Positions 7,319-37,175 of a stretch of 64,000 nucleotides of DNA are shown here, one piece after another. Origin of the DNA: a virus (lineage: Duplodnaviria > Caudoviricetes). Location: IMG/VR virus record IMGVR_UViG_2884152688_000003, positions 32,001 through 96,000 of that record; one strand, 5' to 3'. The translations under genes were made by a program, and so were the position numbers. The notes below the pieces were generated by a model, which worked only from the letters and a program-made list of their open reading frames with translations, had not been told where the DNA came from and did no database searches. Every line of letters starts with the position of its first letter. Position 1 is the first letter of the stretch.

Positions 7319-7723
7319 ATGGAATTAGATACAAATAATCATTCAGTATTTCTTCTATATTATCACCTTGTGTTGGTAACTAAATATCGTAGACAGGTGA
7401 TTGATGATGAAATATCTGATTACGCAAAAGCTACTTTTGAAAGAATTTCAGAATCTTATAACATTACTTTAGTTGAGTGGAATCACGATAAAGACCATAT
7501 TCATATTATGTTCAAAGCTCAACCTAAAACAGAAATGACAAAATTCATAAACGCCTACAAGAGTGCTAGTTCACGTTTGATAAAACGGAACTTTCCAAGA
7601 GTTAAACAGTTTCTTTGGAAAGAGATGTTCTGGTCTAAAAGTTTTTGTCTTTTGACAACTGGTGGAGTTCCAATTGATGTGATTAAGAAATACATTCAAA
7701 GTCAAGGAAGTAATCATAAATAG
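7319..7723 (+). CDS. tnpA: IS200-type Y1 HUH transposase
   Basis: YHLVLVTKYRR, HUH motif DHIH, catalytic Tyr in KKYIQSQ. Confidence 0.95.
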   Translation: MELDTNNHSVFLLYYHLVLVTKYRRQVIDDEISDYAKATFERISESYNITLVEWNHDKDHIHIMFKAQPKTEMTKFINAYKSASSRLIKRNFPRVKQFLWKEMFWSKSFCLLTTGGVPIDVIKKYIQSQGSNHK

Positions 7724-7739
7724 AAAGTAGGTGAACCTC

Positions 7740-8882
7740 ATGAAACAATTAAAAGCATATAAATTCAGAATATCTCCAACAGAAGAACAAGAAATATTCT
7801 TCGCTAAGTCTTTTGGTTGTGTTCGTAAGGTCTACAATCTAATGCTTGATGACCGAATGAAATCTTATGAAGAGACTAAGGATGATACATCTAAAAAAAT
7901 GAAATTTCCAACACCTGCAAAATATAAGAAAGAATTTCCTTTCTTGAAAGAAGTAGATAGCCTTGCTTTAGCAAATGCTCAACTAAATCTAGATAAGGCT
8001 TATAGGAACTTCTTTCGAGATAAATCAATTGGATTTCCTCGTTTCAAAAGCAAAAAAAATCCTGTTCAAAGCTACACAACAAATAATCAAAATGGAACAA
8101 TAACATTGGTTGACGGTAAGTTTATTAAGTTGCCTAAATTAAAGTCATTAGTTAGAATTAAACTGCATAGGCAAATTAAAGGAATTATCAAATCAGCAAC
8201 AATATCACGTCTTGCAAGTGGCAAATACTTTGTGTCTATTCTATGCGAAGAAGATATACAAGAATTGCCAAAGACTAACTCTACTATTGGCATCGACTTA
8301 GGAATATCTCACTTTGCTATACTATCTGACGGTCAAAAGATAGATAACCATAAATTTACTTCTAAGATGGAACAAAAACTTAAACGTGAACAACGCAAAC
8401 TATCCAAACGTTGCCTTATGGCTAAAAAGAAAGGCATTAAACTTTCTGATGCTAAAAACTACCAGAAACAAAAAAATAAAGTAGCTAAGCTACACGAAAA
8501 AGTAATGAACCAACGTGAAGATTTTCTGAACAAGTTAAGTACATCTATTGTCAAAAACCACGATACTATTTGTATAGAAGACTTAAATATCAAAGGAATG
8601 TTACGTAACCATAAATTAGCAAAATCTATATCTGATGTATCATGGTCTAGATTTGTAACTAAATTAGAATACAAAGCCAACTGGTACGGAAGAAAAGTTA
8701 TAAAAGTAGATAAATGGTATCCGTCTAGTCAAATTTGTTCTAACTGTGGACACAATGATGGCAAGAAAGAGTTAACCATAAGAGAATGGACTTGCTCTAA
8801 TTGCAACACGAATCATGATAGAGATATAAATGCAAGTATAAATATAAAAACCGAAGGAATTAGGTTACTAGAAATATCGTAG
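7740..8882 (+). CDS. tnpB: RNA-guided endonuclease TnpB
   Basis: AYKFRI N-terminus, RuvC D/E/D (GIDLG, IEDL, DRDINA) and CxxC...CxxC zinc finger. Confidence 0.95.
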
Positions 8883-9112: not shown

Positions 9113-9188
9113 GGATTAGTAGCTCAGTTGGTAGAGCATTCGGCTGTTAACCGAAGGGTCACAGGTTCGAGTCCTGTCTTTTCCGCCA
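9113..9188 (+). tRNA. tRNA-Asn (GTT)
   Basis: 76-nt cloverleaf: TAGCTCAGTTGGTAGAGC D arm, TTCGG-CTGTTAA-CCGAA anticodon arm, GGTTCGAGTCC T arm, encoded CCA. Two U-U mismatches in the acceptor stem. Confidence 0.92.
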
Positions 9189-24440: not shown

Positions 24441-24754
24441 ATGGTCTTTGGATCGATTGAAGAGTGTGAAGCTTATATAAAGAGTTGTATGACACAAACA
24501 ACCCCAGTTATGGCACAAAAAACTCAAGAAGAAGGAAAGAACATAATATCCGGACAGGTTGGTGGAATAACAGGAAGTTTGGCAAATTCAGTGTTTATAT
24601 TGGGAACATCAGCAAATTCAATGGAGGTAGGAATAGAGGATAGAGGTGGTGGAAATGATTATTCATGGACATCACAGGTTTATAGAACTCATTTCTTTCC
24701 GATGTACGGATTAGAGAAAGGCCACACATGGAATAGAGGTGCCACAACAATTAT
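24441..24754 (+). CDS. Tail-module protein (tail completion/HK97 gp10-like), exon 1
   Basis: Joins in frame to 26910-26994 after removal of IStron 1, giving 132 aa (...RGATTI-M-ITWESW...). Confidence 0.8.
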
Positions 24755-24814
24755 AGGTTTTTCAAGCGAGAAAACCCACGATTTTAATCGTGTGGATGAA
24801 AGCTTGTCAAATAC

Positions 24815-25210
24815 ACTGTAAGCATATAGAGAAATCTGTATGTAGTGAATACATAAAACTCATGTATTCCAATTAAGAAACTGAATTGCTGGAAATTCGT
24901 AAAGCTAACTTAACTACAACGCAAAGATAATACAAAACTTAAACGTGAATGTGGCGAGAGCAGAAAAAATAAGTTAGATGGCATAAGGTTAAACCCTAAG
25001 TGCTTTAAAATTGAAAATCAGCATCCAAGCCTAGAAATAGGAAGGTTCAACGACTATTCCTCTTGAGGGAAGTACATCACAAGCCATTGGTGATGGAAGT
25101 GGTTTCGCCTTAGCACGTAATGGTGAAGGATAAGATATAGTCTGTGCTTGCACGAAAGTGTAAGAAGTTCATAAGAGAACTGTATAGATAGTAGCGAATC
25201 TATATGAACA
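24815..25210 (+). ncRNA. Group I intron ribozyme core of IStron 1
   Basis: P AATTGCTGGAAA, Q AATCAGCA, R GTTCAACGACTA and S AAGATATAGTCT in the correct order. Confidence 0.92.
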
Positions 25211-25299
25211 AACTTCACACAAAAAAAAGAAAGTATAATAGTTTTAATATTGTGTATAAAACTATTGATTTCGTACACTAAATAGCATATAATAAAATT

Positions 25300-25701
25300 A
25301 TGAATAATGAATACAGAGACTCAAAAACAACTGTTTCGTTAATCAATTATCATTTTGTTTTTTGTCCAAGATATCGAAGGAAAATATTTGAAGATTCCAA
25401 AGTAGATATTAGATTTAAATCAGTCATTCAAGAAATATGTATTGAGAATGATTGGGATATTATTGCAATAGAGACAGATAAAGAGCATTGCCATTTATTC
25501 ATAAATGTACAACCTATATATTCTCCTTCTGAAATAATGAAGATAATAAAAGGTATTACATCACGAAAATTAAGGCAAGAATTTGAACATTTAAGCAAAA
25601 TGCCAAGTGTTTGGACAAGGTCATTTTTTGTTTCAACTGCTGGTGATGTATCTAGTAAAATAATTAAAAGATATGTTGAAAATCAAAGAACAAGATACTG
25701 A
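25300..25701 (+). CDS. tnpA: IS200-type Y1 HUH transposase
   Basis: YHFVFCPRYRR, HUH motif EHCH, catalytic Tyr in KRYVENQ. Confidence 0.95.
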   Translation: MNNEYRDSKTTVSLINYHFVFCPRYRRKIFEDSKVDIRFKSVIQEICIENDWDIIAIETDKEHCHLFINVQPIYSPSEIMKIIKGITSRKLRQEFEHLSKMPSVWTRSFFVSTAGDVSSKIIKRYVENQRTRY

Positions 25702-25725
25702 TTATACGTTAAGGAGGTGACAGAA

Positions 25726-26844
25726 ATGAAAAAGGCACATAAGATACGTATTTACCCAAATACTAAACAACAGATACAATTTCAAAAAACATTTGGATGC
25801 GTAAGATTTTACTGGAATTTTATTTTAAACCAAACTCAAACAAATTATAAAATGAAACAAGAAGATGAAATGTATTTAGAAGACAAGACAACATATGCAA
25901 TTCTTAAAAAACAAGAAGAATATTCATGGTTAAAAGAAGTTGAAGCTCAACCATTAAGCCAAGTGACTATGGATTTAAGAAAAGCATACAAAAATACATT
26001 TAAATCTAAGTTTGGGCTCCCTAAATTCAAGAGTAAAAAATACTCTAAAAAATCTTATAGGACAGCAGCTGGAATGAAGGTGAATGAAAACTACTGTTAT
26101 ATATCTAGAGTTGGGTGGGTAAAAATGGCGGAGAAGTTACGATTTAAAGGAAAATTAATGAATGTAACAATCAGTCAATCTAAATCTGGAAAATACTTTG
26201 CAGCATTCTTAGTAGAAACTGAAAATGTTGAACTAGAACCAGTCGAAAATAAAATTGGCTTAGATTTAGGTCTTTCTCATTTCTGTGTAGCTTCCACAGG
26301 AGAAAAAATAGATAACAAAAAATTCTATCATTCTCTTGAAAAGCGACTAATAATTGAACAAAGAAAACTTTCAAAACGTTTAGAGATAGCCAAAAAACAT
26401 AATCGTAAATTAGATGATTGTAAAAACTATCAAAAACAAAAAAAGAAAGTTGCTTTAATACATGAAAAGATATTCAATCAAAGAAATAATTTTTTACATC
26501 AAATTTCTTCAAGAATAACTGATGAAAACCAAGTCATTTGTATAGAAGATTTAAACGTAAAAAACATGATTAAAGATCATAAATTAGCGAAATCAATAGC
26601 CGATGTATCGTGGAGTGAATTCGTAAGACAATTAGAGTACAAGTCTAAATGGAAAGGAAGAAAACTTGTTAAGGTAGATAGATTCTTCCCTAGTTCTCAA
26701 ATTTGTTCTAAATGTGGACACAATGATGGCAAGAAAGAGTTAACCATAAGAGAATGGACTTGTTCTAATTGCAACACGAATCACGATAGAGATATCAATG
26801 CGAGCATAAATATTAAAACCGAAGGACTTTCGGGGTTAGCTTAG
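25726..26844 (+). CDS. tnpB: RNA-guided endonuclease TnpB
   Basis: GLDLG, IEDL and DRDINA catalytic motifs plus zinc finger. AAGGAGG RBS before ATG 25726. Confidence 0.95.
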
Positions 26845-26909
26845 TAAATTTACTATCAATAGATGGTATTACCTAAGAACCCCACGATTTTAATCGTGTG
26901 GAGTGTCAG

Positions 26910-26994
26910 GATTACATGGGAATCATGGGCTTCTGGAAACTTAGATAAGATATTCTTAGAAACAATGAGTGGTCTAGGAGTACCTATAGGATAA
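26910..26994 (+). CDS. Tail-module protein, exon 2
   Basis: G-ATT ACA TGG ... GGA TAA continues the exon 1 frame and stops just before the tape measure RBS. Confidence 0.8.
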
Positions 26995-27009: not shown

Positions 27010-29169
27010 TTGGCTGAGTTTAGAATAAAAAGTACATTAGATCTCAGTACAGATGAAGCAAAGAGCAAAATGAAAGCTCTTGAAAATGAAAAGATTAAAG
27101 CTAAATTAGAACTAGATGCCGAAAGTAGTAAGAAAGCCCTTAACAGTTTAGATAAAGCGTCAAAGCAATCTCAACAGAATAGGGTCAAAGATGCAAAGAA
27201 GGCAGAAAATGAATTAGCTGGGATAGATAGAAAAAAGCTAAATGAATATAAAAGATTAGGGCAGGAAAAAGCTTCTTTAAGTAATAAGTTTGCTAAAGCT
27301 GAAAGCGATAATGCTAGAAAGAATTTAGATAAAAATATTAGAGATAGACAACGACAGATGTCTGGACTATACAAACAAATGTCTAGTGAACAGCAAAAAA
27401 TAGCAAAACAGATGGACACTCAAATGTTCGGTGCTAAATCAGGCAATGGCTTACTGAAGGCATTTGGACGAATAGATAAAGATGCTTTAAAGATAAAAAA
27501 TACTATCAGAAGTCTAGATGGGGATATAACTAAAACCTTAGGGAATAAGCTATCTAAACAAATGGATGGATTTTATAAAGGATTAGATAAAAAACCTGTC
27601 AATAACGCTACGTATGAAAACGCTAGAAGGACGATGAATAGTTATCAACAAAGTGCTAAAGCTTTGAAAGAAATTTCCTCTCTAGAAAAATCATATGGAA
27701 GTAGACAAACGGCTGTAAACAATAGACTGGGTGGTTTAAGTAATCTAGTAACGCAAAAAGCTGGGGCTGAACTAAATAAAAATTTAAGCCAATCTTTTTC
27801 ACAAATTAGAGGAAAAGATATAACTTCAACAGCTAGTAAAATGAAAGTTTTTGGAACTGAATTAAACAGGACAGCTACAGCAAGTAAACAATTACAAGGA
27901 TTAGATAAGACAATAAATAGATTGTCTGGATTAGAAAGTGGTTTAAAACCTAAAACTATTAATGGTCTTAGACAAGGGATAGTCGATTTATCTAAATCAC
28001 CTTCATTAGGAACAGCAAGTTTTGATTCCGAATTAAAAAAAGTAAATACGCAAATGACAGTAGCGAGCCGATATCAAGGCCGAATGGCAAAACTTAAAGA
28101 TGATTTTAAGATGTCCATGTTCGGAACCTCAATGGGATATTTGGCTGGCTCTTTTTTACGTTCTCAAGTAACTGGAGCAATCCAAACTTTTAAAGATTTA
28201 GATGCTTCAATGACAGATATAAAGAAGGTAGCAAATCCTAGAGATGTAGCGACAGAATCTCAAACAAAAGCTATTAGAAAACAAGCTATCCAAATAGCGA
28301 AAGATGTTGGGATGGCTTCATCTGATGTCCAATCATCAATAGCTACAGCATTACAATCTGGTATGGGCGGTATGAAAGAGTCTATGGCAGTTGCAAGAAA
28401 ATCTATGATATTAGCTAACGTTGGTGATATGGATAAAGTTGAGGCAACAAAAGCTGTCAATACCATAGTTAAATCTTTCAACTTAGACCCTTTAGGGAAA
28501 CAAAGAGTTAACGTAAAGGGAATGTCAAAAGAAACAACACAATTAGCTAATGCAATGGACTTGCTTAACTATGCAGGTAATAATTATGCTATATCTTCAG
28601 CAGGTGTAGCCGAGGCATTACAGCGTGGTGGTGGAGTTATGAAAGCATATGGAATGAACTTAGCCGATTCTGTTGCAATGATTACAGCCACAAATGAACC
28701 AATACAGAATCCAGAAAAAGTTGGTAATGGTTTAAAATCTATTGCTATTAATATGGCTGGTATTACAACCAGTGCCAAAGATGGGACACTCCATGCGAAT
28801 AAAACAGCTAAGGCACTTCAAGAAATTGCTGGCGTTGATATATATAAAGATAAGGCAAAAGGATCTCTTAAATCCCAAGTTGAACTTTTAGATGAAGTTC
28901 AGAAAAAATGGGGTGGATTAAACGATGCTCAAAGAGCCGGTCTATCTGAGTCTATAGCAGGTAAACATAGAGCGGATATATTCCAAGCTTTAATGGGGAA
29001 TTACGAAACATTTAAGAAACTTCGTAATGAGTTTAGCCAAGGAGACCACTTTGGTTCAGCTGAAGCCGAAAACGAAAAATATGTAAACTCATTAGCTGGT
29101 AAGACAAACAAGCTAAAAGAGACCATGACTTCCATAGGAACTGGTCTTATAAATGGGAAGGCTGTTTAT
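27010..29169 (+). CDS. Tape measure protein, exon 1
   Basis: TP901-type core (DLDASMTDIKKV, NYAGNNYAIS, VGNGLKSI), ending at ...GKAVY immediately before IStron 2. Confidence 0.92.
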
Positions 29170-29239
29170 TAGGAACGTAGTGATATAAACGAGAATCCTC
29201 GTGATTTTAATCATGAGATGAATCGTAAAATAGATACGT

Positions 29240-29630
29240 AAATAGTAAGCATATAGAGAAATCTGTATGTAGAGGTGAGAGAAATTCATCCAATACTACT
29301 TGAATTGCTGGAAACCCCTAAAGCTAGTAAAACTACAACATAGAGATGAAATATACTCAAGTGTGAATGTTGCGAAAGCAGAAAAAAATTACTAGATAAC
29401 ATAAGGTTAAATCCTAAGTGTTCTACAATAATGGGCAATCAGCAGGTAAGCTCCGAATAGGAGAAACTTCAACGACTATTCCTCTTGAGGGAAGTACACA
29501 CAAGCGTGTGGAAGTGGGTAGACCTTAACACGTAATGGTGAAGGATAAGATATAGTCTGTGCTTGCACGAAAGTGTAAGAAGTTCATAAGAGAACTGTAT
29601 AGATAGTAGCGAATCTATATGAACGAGACC
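29240..29630 (+). ncRNA. Group I intron ribozyme core of IStron 2
   Basis: P AATTGCTGGAAA, Q AATCAGCAG, R TTCAACGACTA, S AAGATATAGTCT. Confidence 0.92.
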
Positions 29631-29742
29631 TCAAAAATGATAAAGTACAAGGTTCAAGGCATTAGTCCAGAAAACTTTTACAAAAATATGGGCTTATTCA
29701 GTAAAATGCGGTACAATTGCCTTATAGAAAAGAGGTGAGAAA

Positions 29743-30993
29743 ATGTATTTAACTGTAAAGCAACAAGTAAAACAATTATCTAAGGAAGACTATAAAAATA
29801 TAAGAGAACTATCTCATGTAGCTAAAAACTTAGCAAATGAAGCTATATATAATATTCGTCAGTATTATTTTCAAGAAGGAGAATATTTGAACTACGAAAA
29901 AAATTATGTATTACTAAAAGATAGTGAAAACTATAAAAAACTAAATTCTAATATGGCACAACAAATATTAAAAGAAGTAGATGGTTCTTTTAAGTCCTTT
30001 TTCAGTCTTATTAAATTAGCTAAGAAAGGAAAGTATTCATTTAGAAATATTAAATTGCCAAAATATCTTCCAAAAGATGGATTTACGACACTTATTATAG
30101 GATTTGTTAGATTAAAGGGAAATCTTTTAACTATACCATATTCTAATCAATTTAAAAAAGAACATTCAACTGTTACTATAAAAATCCCACAAATTCTTTT
30201 AGATAAAAAGATAAAGGAGATAAGAATTATACCTAAAGCTAAAGCTAGGTTCTTTGAGATTCAATATACTTATGAAGTTGAGAAAGAACAAAGAAATTTA
30301 GACAAAAACAAAGCACTAGCAATAGATTTAGGAATTAATAATTTAGCTACTTGTGTGGTATCAACAGGTGAATCCTTCATAGTTGATGGGAGAAGGTTAA
30401 AATCTATAAATCAAGGATATAATAAGCAAAATGCAATATTACAAAGCATTAAAGATAATCAAAAATATGGGAAAAGACCTACAAATAGACAATATAGAAT
30501 TGCTGAAAAAAGAAATAATAAAGTCAATGATTATATGTCTAAAACAGCAAGGATAATAATTAATTATTGCCTTAAAAATAATATTGGAAAAATAGTTTGT
30601 GGGTATAATGAAACATTTCAAAGAAACAGTAAACTTGGCAGAATAAACAATCAAAACTTTACAAATATACCATTTGGTAAACTAAGAGAAAAGTTGGAGT
30701 ATCTATGTGAATTATATGGTATAGAGTTTAAAAAACAAGAAGAAAGTTATACTTCTAAAGCAAGTTTCTTTGATAATGATGAAATCCCAACATATAACAA
30801 TGATAATCCAAAAGAATATGTATTCTCTGGCAAAAGAGTAAAAAGAGGATTGTATAAAACAAAAAAAGGATTAATCTTAAATGCAGATGTAAATGGAGCG
30901 TTAAACATATTAAAGAAAAGTAACGTTGTACCCTTAGAAGGGTTATACACTAGAGGCGAACTGGACACGCCAATACGTATCAAAGTAGTTTAA
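29743..30993 (+). CDS. tnpB: RNA-guided endonuclease TnpB, IS1341-like type without Cys zinc finger
   Basis: AIDLGINN, QEESYTSK and NADVNGA motifs. VCGYN replaces the usual IEDL. Confidence 0.92.
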   Translation: MYLTVKQQVKQLSKEDYKNIRELSHVAKNLANEAIYNIRQYYFQEGEYLNYEKNYVLLKDSENYKKLNSNMAQQILKEVDGSFKSFFSLIKLAKKGKYSFRNIKLPKYLPKDGFTTLIIGFVRLKGNLLTIPYSNQFKKEHSTVTIKIPQILLDKKIKEIRIIPKAKARFFEIQYTYEVEKEQRNLDKNKALAIDLGINNLATCVVSTGESFIVDGRRLKSINQGYNKQNAILQSIKDNQKYGKRPTNRQYRIAEKRNNKVNDYMSKTARIIINYCLKNNIGKIVCGYNETFQRNSKLGRINNQNFTNIPFGKLREKLEYLCELYGIEFKKQEESYTSKASFFDNDEIPTYNNDNPKEYVFSGKRVKRGLYKTKKGLILNADVNGALNILKKSNVVPLEGLYTRGELDTPIRIKVV

Positions 30994-31064
30994 GCTATGG
31001 AGAACGTAAATAGGTTTAATTAATAAACCTTAGAACCCTGTGATTTTAATCATAGGAGGTTCAG

Positions 31065-34000
31065 GGTGGGTTAGATGCTCTTAATGCTTTTGCTGGAGGT
31101 TTAGATAAATTAGTAGGTTTTGCAGAAAAATATAATCTTCAACTACCTGTTATGGCATCAGGGCTAGGGATGTTAAAAAGTTCATTTAATGGGTTTAAGA
31201 CACCTATAAAAACGTGGGAAGAATTACTTGGGAACGATACTCCTAAGAAACATTCTAAAGCTACAAACAAACCGAAAATAACAGCAGATTCTTTCTCTAA
31301 ACCTAGAGATATAAAAGAACAAACAAATGCAGTAAATACATTGACTAAAGCTAATGATAAAAATACTCAATCTATAAGATCTAATGTCAAGGCAAGTGAA
31401 AGAACACCAGAACAAGCAAAAGCTGTTAGAAAAGAATTAGCATCTCAATTTAAGACTGTTGATTCATTAGGTAAAGCAAAAGAGAAAGATTTAGATATAA
31501 CTAAAAAAGGGATTTCAGCTAATATTAAGGCAGCCGAAAGTGCTAAACAACACAGAAAAGGGATATCTGGACAAGTCCAAGAACTTAAGTCTTTAAATAA
31601 AGTTAGTTCACAATCGTCCAAAATAGGTATAGGAGATAAAATCAGTGGAGTAACAAAAGGAATAGGTGGGGTAGCTAAAAATCTATTATCTGGTGTTGGA
31701 GGAATGTTAGCAACAGGTGCTTTATATGGTGGAGCTACTTTAGCTATATCTAAAGGATTAGAATATGGGTATAAAGGATACCAAAAGTTAACTAATGGTG
31801 TGAACATGTCTAGGCAAGCCCACATAGATAGAAGAAATGCCTTAGTAGGTGAGAACAAAGCTATTTCTTCAAATATAAACTTTTTACAAAACAATAAAAA
31901 AGAATATGATTCTTTAAGAAATAAACAAAAGCAGTTATCAAACACGCCATATGAGAATATGTCAGAATCGCAAAAGGCTGATATGGACAAATTAAAGGCA
32001 TATAATGAAAAAATTGCCGATATGTTCCCTAATATGGTTAAAGGTTATGATAAAGATGGAAACCCAATTGTGTCCATGAGTGCTAACGCAGATGGTCTGA
32101 TTAAAAGACTAAAAGTGGCACAAGAGTCAAAAGAAAGATTAATAAAACAAGAAAATCAAAGCATAGCAGACAAGAACTTAACTGAAATGACTAGGGGCGA
32201 GTCTATAGGTGATAGCATAATCGGTCGCATAAACAATAAAAACAAAAGCGTTTCAGATTATTACAAAAATCTAGCAAAACAAAGCATGAAAGATTATGCT
32301 TTTACAGATATGTCTAAGTTTTTACCAAAAAACAAAACACACAGCGATGCTTTGTTAGGTGATGATTCTTGGAAAAAAAGACAGGCAAAATGGAAAGAGG
32401 GCTACAATAGTTACAAAAAAGAAGTAGACAAAACCTATGGGGAACTAGCTAATGACATAGCTAAATATGACAAAGCTAACGCCCATAATGCATCAGTAGG
32501 GCAACAAAGCTTACTCGATTCTGGGAGATTTAAAAACTTAAAAAATTCTGCAAAAGAAGCAATCTCCGAAATGGGCTCTATGCTTACATGGGGTAAAATA
32601 AGCACGACAGATGGTGTAAGCTTTTTAAATAAATTAGGAGAAAATGCCGACCCGTCAAAAATACAAAATTGGACAAAACAATTAAATAAATTAAACGAAG
32701 CGTATAAGATGGATAAAGATAGGCAAACTTATCAGGCTGGCATAAAGAGCTTGGCTGATGAAATGGCTAAATCTACAAACGGAAGAGCAAAAGACTATAT
32801 CAAAATGCTTGAAGATGTTGATAGGGGATACGCTAATTTAGAAGAAAAAAGAACCGCAGATTATATGAAGAAGAAAGGTACTAAGTTTAGTGACTTAATG
32901 GAAGGTGGATCTAAAGGATCTTATGCTGACAAAGTTCAACAAGAAATAAGGGACATAATGTCAGCTGAACAACTTCTTATGAATGCAAGAACAACCGCCC
33001 AAAAGAAAAATGCTTTAAGTGAAATTGCTTCATATGATGGTTTAGGTTCTGGCGTTCAAAATTGGGCAAAAGCACTAAGTAATCAAAATGGTATTTCAGA
33101 TGCTAGTATGTCCGCTTTCTCTAAGGTGCTAGGAGCGATAGAGAATTATGACCCTAAAAATAAAAATGCCGCAAAAGACCTAAGTAATATAAAGAAAGCA
33201 CTTAATACTGGTGATATAAAAAATGGAATGAGTATCGCTGACGTACTCTCTCTCACTAAGGACGAATTAGAAGCGATAAGGAATATTGACCCTAATGGAA
33301 ATGCCGGTAATATATTTGAAAAAATGTTAACGGGTGGAGAACAGCTTAAAAATAGCTTGAAAAATGTTCAAGATTTTTATTCTAAAGGTGATAATAAGAT
33401 TGAACTAGAGGCTGAGGTTGCATTAAAGATAGCGGATGCTAACTTAAATACAAAGGAACTTGAAGGTCTAGAAAAAGCTGTCCAAAAAATAGAAGATAGT
33501 AAAAAGAATATGTTTCGAGGTGAAGGAGCAAAATATTTTTCAGGAACAAATGGGGATGTGAATAAGGCATATGAGAATATGTCTAAGACTGATGAGGGTG
33601 TTAAGTTTGCTATCCGCTCTGGTGCAAGTGAAGAAGTTAATAAGTATCGTGAGGGGGTTTCACGTTTAAGCGATAGCTATAACCAACTTAATAGTGAAAT
33701 GAAAAAAAGCATAGATTCTTTAAGTGGAAAGGAATTTAGTTCATATTTAGATACTTTTTCTAAACTTGACGATAAAATGAAATCGTTTGTAAAGAATAAT
33801 AATATAGTTTCAGAAAGTGGTATCAAGGCTGCAAGTGGTCTTTATGATATTGGTAAAAGTACCGGTCTTTCAGATATTCAATCTGAAACAATGGTAAAAG
33901 TAGTGATAAGTACAGTGGGGGAAGAAGGGGCGTCTAGAGTTAAATCATATTTAGACAGTTTGCCAGCTGAAAAAAGAGTAAATGTAACAGCACAGCTAAG

Positions 34001-37000
34001 TGGTGAAAATGGTGAAGGATTCGCACAAGGGTATGACGCTTTAATGCAACATTTCAATGGTGACACTAAACTTGTCCAAAAAGTAGCTTTTGAATTAGAA
34101 AATCAAGGACAAGGGGATCTTATTTCACAACTGAGACCGGACAATTTAAAGGAAACTTTAAAGGTAAAAGCTGAGATAGATATAGATAATATGGATGGTT
34201 TTTCGGGAAAAGAACTTCCTCCAAAAAAACAAAGAGTAGAGATTGAAGAAAGCGAAACAAGTGGTTCAAAAGAATTACCACCAAAGAAACAGAAGGTTAC
34301 ACCCGAAATTGCAACAGACGCTTTAAATGGTGGATTTGCAGGACTAAACGCTCACTTGCCACCTATTAAACAAAAGGTAGAAATTGAACAACCAGCACCA
34401 CCAGCTCCAATTGAGGCTGCACCATACATATTCCAAAAACCAGTAATTCCTCAACCAGACCCACCTCAAGTCGGGCCTATAGCGGCACCACAAGTTGAAA
34501 CGCCAGTTACACCTGAACCAACTCTGCCGGCAATGCCAGCTTTACCGGCGCCACAAATGCAGGCACCTACAATGCCAGTACCAATTATGCCAGTCTTACC
34601 TGTGTTCCCCGCTCCGATAGTAGGAACACCAATCATTCCAAAACCTACATTACCTAGTATGGGGACAATACCTGCACCAAAAATAGGTATGCCAACTGTG
34701 CCTAAACCATCTTTACCAAAGATGGATACTATAGCTGCACCAAAGGTTAATACACCTAAGGTTCCAGCACCAACAATGCCTAAAGTCGAACCAATAAAAA
34801 TAAGTATTCCTTCGGTAAAAGTCCCAGATGTAAAAGGGCAATTAGCTAAGATACCTAAAAGCACAACGGCTACAGTTAGGGTAATAGACAATGCATCGGG
34901 GCCGGCAAGAGCAGCTGCGGGTGCTGTTAGATCATTCCCTACTGGAACAAGAGTAGCGACATTAATTACAAAATATGTAACTCAAGGTTCACCAGGTGGT
35001 GGTGGAGGGAAAGGTGGAGGAAAGTCTCTTGATATTAAAAGAGATGAAATAGACTCTAAATTAGAAAAACTTAAAAAGTTAAAGAACTCTAATTATTTCA
35101 ATCTTAAAGATCTTTCCATCTTTAGAAAAAAGAATACTCAACTTAATCCTCTAGCAACAGCACCAGTAATGGGAGCAGTAGCAACAAGTGATGGTTCTAT
35201 GTCTACACCAATTGGTGGTTATATAGGTGGAACAGCTTCACCTATGGATGAAGACATCGTGTCTTTAGTTAATGAATTCAAGAATAGAACTCTCAAAGGA
35301 TTTGACTATAAAGGAATTACAGCTTTAGATAGACTGAGTTATTCCTTAAAGGAAATACAATTTGGATTAAAAGAAGATATTAATCTTCTTCATGAAATGG
35401 AAAGAGCAGTTAATAGAGTAAATAATTCTATTAAAAGAATAGACTTAAATATGCAAAGAGCTCGTGGCTCTGAAAAAGTGTCTATGCTTTTCCTTCAGAA
35501 CGACCAAATAAGAGAATCAATAAGACGTTCTCAAGCACATCGAGCGGCATTAGTAGTAGAAAGAGATGCATATAGAAATATGTTGAGGACTGAAGGGTTC
35601 AAATTTACACCAGACGGAACTCTGACAGCAAACTATTACGCTCAAATGGCTAAATATAAAGAGCGTGATTTAGCTATCGAAAAAGAATTAGAGAAGTTAA
35701 AAGATGGCAAAGGCGCTGATAGCAAGAGAAAGAAACTTGAAGAAGAAAAGAAAGAAATTGAAAGAAAAAGAAAAACACTTGATGAATACGAGAAAACAGT
35801 AGATAAAATTGTTGATGTGGATTATGGAATTAAAGAACATGAAGTGAAGATAGATAATAATGTTGATGAGGTTGAAAAATTAAGGATTTCTGCATGGAAA
35901 GAAAATTATGAGGCCGCAACAAAAATTATGGATTCTGCTATAAAAGCAATAAATAATTCACTAGATATATATTCTATTAAGTTTAAATATGCTTTTGGTA
36001 TGGATAGATTAAATATCTTAGACGCACAAACATCCAAATATAGAGAGATGAATACAGTTATCGAAAGTAATATTAATACCTTAAATAACTTAAAATCAAA
36101 TCTACAAGGACGTTTAGAAAAACATGGGTTTACTTTTAATGGAGATAACATCTCAAATTATCAGACACACATGGCACAGCTTAAAGATACTTCCACTCTA
36201 TATGAAGATATTAAAAGTTTAGCATCTCAATATTTCGACATTGTTGAAAGCAAAATTCCAGATTATAATAAGAAAATGGAAGAAATGAACCAAAAGGTTA
36301 AAGACAATGCGAAACAAAAGCTTGAAGACACTAAAACGATAGAAGATAAAATTACTAGCATGTTAAAGAAACAGGCTGATGAAAGAATAAAAGCTATCGA
36401 GAAGGAAAGTAAAGCTAGAGAAGATGCTATAAAGAAAAAGAAAGATGAATATAATGAGGCTAGAAAAGAAGCTGATTATCAAGATGATTACCAAAAGAAA
36501 TTAAAGGAAATTGAAAAACTTGAGAAAAAGCGTGATATATATACAAAAGATACTAGCCAAAAAGGGCAAAAAGAACTTCAAAAAATAAATGAAGAACTAG
36601 AAAAGAAAGTAGAAGAACTTCAGAAAAGCGTTGAAAAACACGTGGATGATAAAGTAAATAAGATATATGATGATGAGTCTAAAAGATTAGCTGATGAATT
36701 GAAAGAACTTAAAGAAAAAAGAGATGAGGAATATACTGACGCTGAATTATTGAAAAAAGCTCAAGAGGCTATACAATCGGGGCAATTTACTGATTGGGAT
36801 GGTAATGTGAAAGATCTTCAAACAGCGTTGATAGATTATATGAATGAGTTTGAAGGCGGATTATCAGCAACAGGAGCTTTAATTCAAGCAGAACTAATCG
36901 CCAAATTAAAGGTGGCTAATGATACAATAGCAAGTTTTAAGGAAAATCTCGACATACTTGGAGTAGGTGATTATAATTTAGGTGGTTACATACAGCATTC

Positions 37001-37175
37001 TAAATATAATGAGTTAGAAGATAGAAGAAAAGAATCTACCAACAACATTACCTATAACAAGTCTTTAGTAGAAATCCAAGGCAATGTAGATACTGGAACA
37101 TATGAGAAGATACTTGCTGAAGTTCAAAAATATATAAAACAGCACGAAAGAGATTTAAGAAGCAATATAAGATAA
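31065..37175 (+). CDS. Tape measure protein, exon 2
   Basis: GGT GGG TTA GAT... is open and in frame with ATG 31152. The spliced product is 720+29+2007 = 2756 aa. Confidence 0.9.
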   Translation, partial: GGLDALNAFAGGLDKLVGFAEKYNLQLPVMASGLGMLKSSFNGFKTPIKTWEELLGNDTPKKHSKATNKPKITADSFSKPRDIKEQTNAVNTLTKANDKNTQSIRSNVKASERTPEQAKAVRKELASQFKTVDSLGKAKEKDLDITKKGISANIKAAESAKQHRKGISGQVQELKSLNKVSSQSSKIGIGDKISGVTKGIGGVAKNLLSGVGGMLATGALYGGATLAISKGLEYGYKGYQKLTNGVNMSRQAHIDRRNALVGENKAISSNINFLQNNKKEYDSLRNKQKQLSNTPYENMSESQKADMDKLKAYNEKIADMFPNMVKGYDKDGNPIVSMSANADGLIKRLKVAQESKERLIKQENQSIADKNLTEMTRGESIGDSIIGRINNKNKSVSDYYKNLAKQSMKDYAFTDMSKFLPKNKTHSDALLGDDSWKKRQAKWKEGYNSYKKEVDKTYGELANDIAKYDKANAHNASVGQQSLLDSGRFKNLKNSAKEAISEMGSMLTWGKISTTDGVSFLNKLGENADPSKIQNWTKQLNKLNEAYKMDKDRQTYQAGIKSLADEMAKSTNGRAKDYIKMLEDVDRGYANLEEKRTADYMKKKGTKFSDLMEGGSKGSYADKVQQEIRDIMSAEQLLMNARTTAQKKNALSEIASYDGLGSGVQNWAKALSNQNGISDASMSAFSKVLGAIENYDPKNKNAAKDLSNIKKALNTGDIKNGMSIADVLSLTKDELEAIRNIDPNGNAGNIFEKMLTGGEQLKNSLKNVQDFYSKGDNKIELEAEVALKIADANLNTKELEGLEKAVQKIEDSKKNMFRGEGAKYFSGTNGDVNKAYENMSKTDEGVKFAIRSGASEEVNKYREGVSRLSDSYNQLNSEMKKSIDSLSGKEFSSYLDTFSKLDDKMKSFVKNNNIVSESGIKAASGLYDIGKSTGLSDIQSETMVKVVISTVGEEGASRVKSYLDSLPAEKRVNVTAQLSGENGEGFAQGYDALMQHFNGDTKLVQKVAFELENQGQGDLISQLRPDNLKETLKVKAEIDIDNMDGFSGKELPPKKQRVEIEESETSGSKELPPKKQKVTPEIATDALNGGFAGLNAHLPPIKQKVEIEQPAPPAPIEAAPYIFQKPVIPQPDPPQVGPIAAPQVETPVTPEPTLPAMPALPAPQMQAPTMPVPIMPVLPVFPAPIVGTPIIPKPTLPSMGTIPAPKIGMPTVPKPSLPKMDTIAAPKVNTPKVPAPTMPKVEPIKISIPSVKVPDVKGQLAKIPKSTTATVRVIDNASGPARAAAGAVRSFPTGTRVATLITKYVTQGSPGGGGGKGGGKSLDIKRDEIDSKLEKLKKLKNSNYFNLKDLSIFRKKNTQLNPLATAPVMGAVATSDGSMSTPIGGYIGGTASPMDEDIVSLVNEFKNRTLKGFDYKGITALDRLSYSLKEIQFGLKEDINLLHEMERAVNRVNNSIKRIDLNMQRARGSEKVSMLFLQNDQIRESIRRSQAHRAALVVERDAYRNMLRTEGFKFTPDGTLTANYYAQMAKYKERDLAIEKELEKLKDGKGADSKRKKLEEEKKEIERKRKTLDEYEKTVDKIVDVDYGIKEHEVKIDNNVDEVEKLRISAWKENYEAATKIMDSAIKAINNSLDIYSIKFKYAFGMDRLNILDAQTSKYREMNTVIESNINTLNNLKSNLQGRLEKHGFTFNGDNISNYQTHMAQLKDTSTLYEDIKSLASQYFDIVESKIPDYNKKMEEMNQKVKDNAKQKLEDTKTIEDKITSMLKKQADERIKAIEKESKAREDAIKKKKDEYNEARKEADYQDDYQKKLKEIEKLEKKRDIYTKDTSQKGQKELQKINEELEKKVEELQKSVEKHVDDKVNKIYDDESKRLADELKELKEKRDEEYTDAELLKKAQEAIQSGQFTDWDGNVKDLQTALIDYMNEFEGGLSATGALIQAELIAKLKVANDTIASFKENLDILGVGDYNLGGYIQHSKYNELEDRRKESTNNITYNKSLVEIQGNVDTGTYEKILAEVQKYIKQHERDLRSNIR

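Follow-up and report, generated by a model that had tools for sequence, protein, structure and literature searches.

In a 64,000-nucleotide stretch of viral DNA (hereafter the window; positions 32001-96000 of the 106,300-base contig C12, which belongs to a 2.1-Mb genome in 29 contigs) we find a phage tape measure gene that appears to be interrupted by an IStron, a combination of a group I intron with an IS200/IS605-type insertion sequence (IS) element. We regard it as highly probable that this element, IStron 2, lies within the tape measure gene and that splicing by its ribozyme rebuilds a protein of 2756 amino acids (aa) from the two flanking exons. The exon junction, 29169/31065 (here and below a slash marks a splice junction or an element boundary; ...AVY/GGLDALNAF... 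in the protein), had been proposed in a first-pass annotation of this DNA and is upheld by what we describe as four independent lines of evidence, namely the constraints of the reading frames, collinear homologues, the boundary rules of group A IStrons and a P1 helix with a wobble pair at U29169.

Exons and element boundaries

The features of the interrupted gene and of the element within it are:

27010..29169, plus strand: tape measure exon 1, 720 codons, TTG start, TP901-type core
29165..29169, plus strand: TTTAT target pentanucleotide (transposon-adjacent motif, TAM), adjoining the left end; U29169 is the 5' splice-site base
29170..31064, plus strand: IStron 2, 1895 nt; group I intron with an IS200/IS605-type element that has tnpB only
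29198..29218, plus strand: left-end subterminal palindrome with the core GATTTTAATC, lying inside additional stems that belong to the P1 domain
29243..29248, plus strand: putative internal guide sequence (UAG-UAA), pairing with 29166-29171 to form P1 (manual pairing)
29245..29640, plus strand: group I ribozyme core, P2-P9 with peripheral stems (RF00028; covariation)
29743..30993, plus strand: tnpB, 416 aa, RNA-guided nuclease family
31039..31054, plus strand: right-end subterminal palindrome, core GATTTTAATC as at the left end
31061..31064, plus strand: TCAG 3' terminus, with G31064 as the intron's terminal G
31065..37175, plus strand: tape measure exon 2, 2036 codons plus stop

The open reading frame (ORF) at 27010-29172 codes for 720 aa from a TTG start with GGAAGGAG upstream, and its N-terminus aligns with those of its homologues from residue 1. 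It ends with GTT TAT at 29169, where it is followed directly by an in-frame TAG (29170-29172), the first three bases of IStron 2. On the far side of the element the downstream frame is closed by a TAG at 31053-31055 and open from 31056, such that position 31065 (GGT GGG TTA) is in frame with the ATG at 31152 and with the ORF ending at 37175. Exon 2 offers no in-frame start codon ahead of ATG 31152, and no Shine-Dalgarno motif precedes this ATG. Both exons are open and free of frameshifts, over 2.2 and 6.1 kb respectively. The exon ends given in the first-pass annotation can thus be read directly from the sequence, and its figure of 2756 aa for the joined protein is reproduced by counting codons (720 + 2036).

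Profile searches identify both exons as parts of a tape measure gene. Exon 1 contains the TP901-type core (Pfam PF10145, 3e-23) and matches phrog_13137 at 5e-52, and several tape-measure PHROGs match the gene. The match of exon 1 to TIGR01760 (3.4e-21) extends only to position 298 of the 349 in the profile, the rest of which is not matched by the first 100 residues of exon 2. Exon 2 for its part matches phrog_10871 at 5.8e-227. Positions 1-117 of this profile, which has 2054 positions, correspond to exon 1 residues 582-718, and exon 2 continues the match up to position 2053.

The boundaries of the element are those of a known class. According to Tourasse et al. 2014 (PMC4227781), the group A IStrons, which are CdISt1-like and of the IS200/IS605 type, have TTGAT, ATTAT or TTTAT immediately before them and TCAG as their 3' terminus. 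IStron 2 begins with the TAG that stops exon 1 and terminates with TCAG, and the match of its TTTAT/...TCAG/ boundaries to the group A rule leads to the same junction, 29169/31065. A related element, IStron 1, lies just upstream (see below), and between the left- and right-end hairpin stems of the two IStrons there is a compensatory change from T-A to C-G. The protein encoded within IStron 2 matches Pfam OrfB_IS605 (1.2e-29), the TNB domain (1.7e-10) and the NCBIfam model guided_TnpB (191 bits against a cut-off of 100), and has the motifs AIDLG and NADVNGALNI. Its C-terminal part has no CxxC zinc-finger cysteines, and a sequence search of PDB with it recovered weak matches only (E 3e-4). No tnpA is present in IStron 2. 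On these sequence features we classify 29170-31064 as a group A (CdISt1-like, IS200/IS605-family) IStron inserted in the tape measure gene.

The junction in uninterrupted relatives

A search with exon 1 residues 420-720 against proteins of 1261-3600 aa gave 352 matches, 120 of which were listed. Many of these 120 homologues are 2650-2730 aa long with 65-69% identity, and one of 2672 aa (P0003) is collinear with the joined exons from end to end in a BLAST alignment, exon 1 residues 1-715 corresponding to its residues 1-708 and exon 2 residues 1-2035 to its residues 714-2671. We compared probes of 60 residues each, taken from the tail of exon 1 and the head of exon 2, with the 120 listed homologues. 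The tail was matched in 119 of them. Among these 119 the head was matched in 87: in 68 it starts at the very next residue, with zero offset, while the other 19 matches are weak (E 0.96 to 9) and located elsewhere; in the remaining 32 the 60-residue head probe found no match. The chance of the two frames being in register is by itself 1 in 3, and in the 68 homologues the exon ends abut with neither gap nor overlap. Given that the exon halves are collinear and abutting in relatives, the two ORFs correspond there to one protein. The first-pass annotation had named the occurrence of the two ORFs as separate proteins in relatives as the observation that would speak against its gene model; when this was checked the model was not refuted, the relatives compared here being continuous across the site.

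The same picture emerges at individual loci. In the Clostridioides difficile phage LIBA2945 a single annotated ORF reads ...NSNTTY/GFLDGLISV... across the site. A DNA-level check returned 25 viral-contig loci, and the nine closest of these, with 59-64% protein identity and a match extending to the last residue, all read through ...TAT/GG... without interruption. The residue immediately before the junction (-1) is K in 97 of the 119 homologues and Y in 19, and the residues immediately after it (+1) are G (99 homologues), S (13), D (3), N (2), A (1) and L (1), and never C. This last observation bears on a neighbouring candidate junction, 29170/31066, which is also in frame (Y-C-G-L) and obeys the rule of a U before and a G at the end of the intron. 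We rejected it because C is absent at +1 from all 119 homologues and because it breaks the TTTAT/ and TCAG/ boundaries.

The relatives also bear on a reading in which no RNA is joined and the tape measure is split, with the 720-aa protein and a 2007-aa protein starting at ATG 31152 as its two parts. Many database entries for relatives are indeed annotated as two ORFs. However, the splits in these entries lie elsewhere, at about residue 523 and at 653-658, and match the place of an intron annotated in phage phiCD211, whereas the 68 homologues are continuous at the residue-720 site. Moreover, the 29 codons from 31065 to 31151, which the 2007-aa protein would lack, are conserved with the homologues, ATG 31152 has no Shine-Dalgarno motif, and no earlier in-frame start exists. 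We find a two-protein tape measure hardly credible on these grounds.

The breaks seen in the relatives are informative about the gene family as a whole. In exon 1 numbering, 16 clusters have their last residue at about 523-525 (...NYAG), with many others beginning at 504-557, while 13 clusters break after about 653-658 (...SESIAGK); there are in addition single breaks, four at 558-588 and one at 696. To judge from the sequences, the recurrent breaks at about 523-525 and 653-658 are likely to be further intron sites, and phiCD211 has an annotated Intron_gpI, without tnpB, between two tape measure ORFs at one of these upstream break positions. The tape measure core is a known intron landing place; the residue-720 site is new.

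The ribozyme and the case for splicing

The ribozyme was recovered in an Rfam scan of a 2-kb segment, in which 29245-29579 matches RF00028 over the complete model (1-253) with 69.5 bits (gathering score 50; E 4.6e-17). Scans of the whole window, run at gathering scores and with E up to 0.01, reported only a tRNA and missed this 69.5-bit intron, so that negative results for introns from whole-window Rfam scans cannot be trusted here. The ribozyme of IStron 1 (24818-25209), which is 80% identical to that of IStron 2 over about 390 bases, likewise went unreported in an Rfam scan of 2.7 kb. An exact search with a 24-base query in viral and genome contigs identified 11 further loci with the ribozyme, and we folded an alignment of 11 copies with RNAalifold. 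The consensus structure has 90 pairs, of which 53 are upheld by compensatory changes to both bases in one or more sequences. In IStron 2, 86 of these 90 pairs can form; of the four that cannot, three fall on alignment gaps, in a stem of reduced length in four of the sequences.

Comparison of the copies also indicates where the 5' splice site is recognized. In most of the related copies the TTTAT/intron boundary lies about 65-75 bases upstream of an invariant AG/UAAGCAU, and this guide is kept in all 11 aligned copies. In IStron 2, manual pairing guided by the relatives gives a P1 with U29166-A29248, U29167-A29247 and A29168-U29246 on the exon side, a U29169-G29245 wobble at the splice site, and U29170-A29244 and A29171-U29243 on the intron side (in silico). 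In the description of group A IStrons (PMC4227781), the 5' splice site is marked by a U-G wobble that has pairs on either side of it, and the P1 predicted for IStron 2 is this group A arrangement. A single-sequence fold of 29158-29275 has a z-score of -4.2 and places the left-end hairpin inside nested stems. Another P1, in which exon GUUUAU would pair with AUAAAC at 29185-29190 and leave a U-A pair at the splice site, was dropped after comparison with the relatives. As a separate observation, a contig of a Pectinatus metagenome-assembled genome carries two copies of the ribozyme (L025 and L026) 749 bases apart, each directly after TTTAT; with very short P1 regions and no end hairpin, they resemble plain introns of a kind related to the IStron ribozyme.

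IStrons splice in vivo (PMC4227781; 10.1101/2023.11.20.567912; PMC13521648), and the features above would allow IStron 2 to do so by the group I pathway. In the folded late transcript, exon bases U29166-U29169 and intron bases U29170-A29171 would pair with the guide at 29243-29248; GTP would attack after U29169, and the freed exon would in turn attack after G31064, joining GTTTAT to GGTGGG in an mRNA for the 2756-aa tape measure protein. At the customary estimate of roughly 0.15 nm of tail per residue, a protein of this size would correspond to a tail of about 400 nm. In unspliced RNA translation would stop at the TAG at 29170, giving the 720-aa fragment, and exon 2, with neither a ribosome-binding site nor a start codon of its own, would go untranslated. 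By analogy with published IStrons, the 3' end of IStron 2 may also encode a guide RNA for TnpB, with 31039-31054 as part of its 3' scaffold and the first bases of exon 2 as the guide, in which case splicing and guide-RNA maturation would compete for each transcript. If this scheme is correct, the infectivity of the phage may depend on the ribozyme, as the first-pass annotation supposed.

Several points weigh against splicing and have to be set beside this evidence. The splicing of IStron 2 itself is something we infer from the sequence and from the precedent of group I introns and IStrons. The minimum-free-energy fold of the single sequence adopts another P1 register, without the wobble, the register chosen here being the one indicated by the relatives. 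P10, in which the 3' exon pairs with the guide, is weak, with two of the first four positions pairing (manual). An insertion at the residue-720 site was not found in 40 related genomes or in proteins of near-full length, and among 35 mapped truncated forms the window's protein is the only one that ends at residue 720. The insertion may therefore be recent, and with a possibly recent insertion long-term survival is no argument for splicing.

A recent insertion that simply disrupts the gene, spliced inefficiently or not at all, would leave a tail-defective phage that survives only in prophage or plasmid form for as long as the element stays in place. The occupation of the site in this genome only, among those searched, and the weak P10 would both fit such a history, and IStron splicing is reported to be easily lost and to depend on the 3' exon (PMC13521648). 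On the other hand, the ribozyme retains nearly all of its consensus pairs, the P1 with its U-G wobble is intact, and the exons have remained open over their whole lengths without a frameshift. Furthermore, the neighbouring tail gene harbours a related IStron, and two lethal neighbours are less likely than two tolerated ones. A merely disruptive insertion therefore seems to us unlikely, and we retain splicing as the preferred explanation.

Neighbouring elements, precedents and phage setting

Two further elements of the IS200/IS605 type lie upstream in the window:

24755..26909, plus strand: IStron 1, ribozyme with tnpA and tnpB, in the gene that immediately precedes the tape measure gene
25300-25701, plus strand: tnpA of IStron 1, IS200-type Y1 transposase (Y1_Tnp 1e-37; IS200 transposase equivalog 141 bits)
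25717-26844, plus strand: tnpB of IStron 1, classical TnpB (NCBIfam)
7319-8882: third IS200/IS605-type pair, a 134-aa transposase and a 383-aa TnpB that is 52% identical to the TnpB of IStron 1

IStron 1 is inserted after ATTAT and ends with TCAG (26906-26909); TTTTT was considered as its target and dropped after comparison with relatives together with a test of frame and homology. The small gene that it interrupts spans 24441-26994: AT (24753-24754) and G (26910) combine into an ATG codon, which is followed by 27 more codons up to a TAA at 26992. The upstream piece matches positions 1-105 of phrog_11057 (140 positions) and the 27-aa piece positions 116-139 (E 0.0024), and the phiCD211 homologue is a single ORF. 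Splicing of IStron 1 would likewise restore a full-length homologue. The TnpB of IStron 1 has the zinc-finger cysteines (CSKCG...CSNCN), and it can barely be aligned with that of IStron 2, a single stretch of 89 residues being matched at 27% (E 3e-4). Because the ribozymes are 80% identical while the TnpBs barely align, the sequences suggest that ribozyme and IS parts have been shuffled as modules. No ribozyme match lies beside the third IS605 pair (7319-8882). A tRNA gene (9113-9185; Rfam 67.1 bits) is found just 3' of this third element on the phage-like contig.

IStron 1 is the likely source of a transposase acting in trans on IStron 2. Having no tnpA of its own, IStron 2 would depend for any movement or scarless excision on a Y1 transposase supplied by IStron 1 or by the third IS605 element. 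Were such excision the main route, some genomes would regain an intact tape measure gene at the level of DNA and splicing would play a minor part. The tnpA at 25300-25701 is intact, the end hairpins of the two IStrons have a common core, and scarless excision by TnpA is known (10.1101/2023.11.20.567912). According to the same work, however, TnpB re-cuts empty sites and so restores the element; the assembly has the occupied site only, and an intact ribozyme, unnecessary under this model, has nonetheless been conserved. We accordingly consider restoration mainly through DNA very improbable. The possibility of scarless excision by the TnpA of IStron 1 does bear on the wording of the first-pass annotation, according to which the tape measure protein exists only after splicing: this stands for the DNA as assembled and is slightly too strong as a general statement.

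Every tnpA and tnpB match in the 2.1-Mb genome falls on this 106-kb phage-like contig, which fits a phage-borne lifestyle of these elements. One could accordingly imagine the two IStrons as an RNA-guided system of homing and marker exclusion between co-infecting phiCD211-like phages, in which TnpB would cut intron-less alleles (TTTAT with the start of exon 2) and drive the tail module into rivals, and the competition between splicing and guide-RNA formation would set the amount of full-length tape measure protein. Counter to this, none of the nine nearest relatives has a matching target: their pentanucleotides are CTTAT or CATAT, and 11-12 of the 20 guide bases match. We mention such a system as a speculation with a small chance of being correct.

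The component parts of this arrangement, namely IStrons, their splicing, their presence in phages and group I introns in tape measure genes, have already been described. Group A IStrons including CdISt1 are reported from Clostridioides difficile, Enterococcus, Fusobacterium and others (Tourasse et al. 2014, PMC4227781; C. difficile IStrons in 10.1101/2023.11.20.567912). As described in these sources, they share with IStron 2 a 5' group I ribozyme, a 3' IS605 module, a T-rich pentanucleotide target, the TCAG end, subterminal palindromes at both ends and a U-G wobble in P1 with flanking pairs, and copies with tnpB only occur in C. difficile too. Unlike CdISt1, to which we liken it by features and not by sequence, IStron 2 resides in the tape measure gene of a phage, on a contig that is phiCD211-like, and its TnpB is divergent in lacking the zinc-finger cysteines present in its sister in IStron 1. 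IStrons in phage genomes are represented by CbISt3 and CbISt4 of the Clostridium botulinum phages c-st and D-1873. As given in PMC4227781, however, these belong to group B (IS607-type): their target ends in GG and their 3' end is CGG, their TnpA is a serine recombinase, and their 5' splice site is displaced by one base. IStron 2 shows none of these marks.

Introns in tape measure genes offer the complementary precedent. The intron of phiCD211/phiCDIF1296T (annotation of LN681537.2) is in the same phage lineage and the same gene and splits the TP901-type core, but it occupies another site, near residue 523 in the homologue of the last 200 residues of exon 1, and is about 0.6 kb long without tnpB. 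In prophages of the Bacillus cereus group, group I introns are described at three positions of the tape measure gene, a gene needed for assembling the tail and for its length (Tourasse and Kolsto 2008, PMC2504315); these too are group I introns in a large prophage tape measure gene, but according to that account they are plain introns, and they come from another host clade. A full-text search for IStrons together with the tape measure gene found the two treated only separately, Garneau 2018 on phiCD211 being outside its coverage. The present case extends the set of introns known from the tape measure genes of phages by a group A IStron and introduces no new principle. It supplies a correct gene model where automatic annotation would split the locus into a "minor tail protein", a "transposase" and a "hypothetical protein". 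Its two related IStrons, of which one is autonomous and the other has tnpB alone, lie in adjacent essential tail genes. The locus is thus also a compact natural test bed, suited to studying how splicing is balanced with the formation of guide RNA and with transposition in the late transcript of a phage.

The contig carries a large phiCD211-like siphophage, whose genes around the tape measure gene include:

12256, plus strand: large terminase (PHROG, Pfam and NCBIfam matches)
14053, plus strand: portal (PHROG, Pfam and NCBIfam matches)
between the portal and the tail protein, plus strand: virion proteins (profile matches)
23186, plus strand: tail protein (profile matches)
23973 and 24441, plus strand: two small genes upstream of the tape measure gene
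37362, 38978 and 40899, plus strand: minor tail, tail and fibre genes downstream of the tape measure gene

Among the sequencing runs listed as containing this DNA there is none of RNA, and the seven listed runs contain 5-6% of the sampled words. The order of PHROG and Pfam matches places the tape measure gene in a tail module, with small chaperone-like genes before it and distal tail and tail-tip genes after it. Among named phages, LIBA2945/LIBA6276 and phiCD211 come closest; they are siphophages of Clostridioides difficile of roughly 130 kb, a group to which a review attributes "intriguingly long tails" (PMC9784644).

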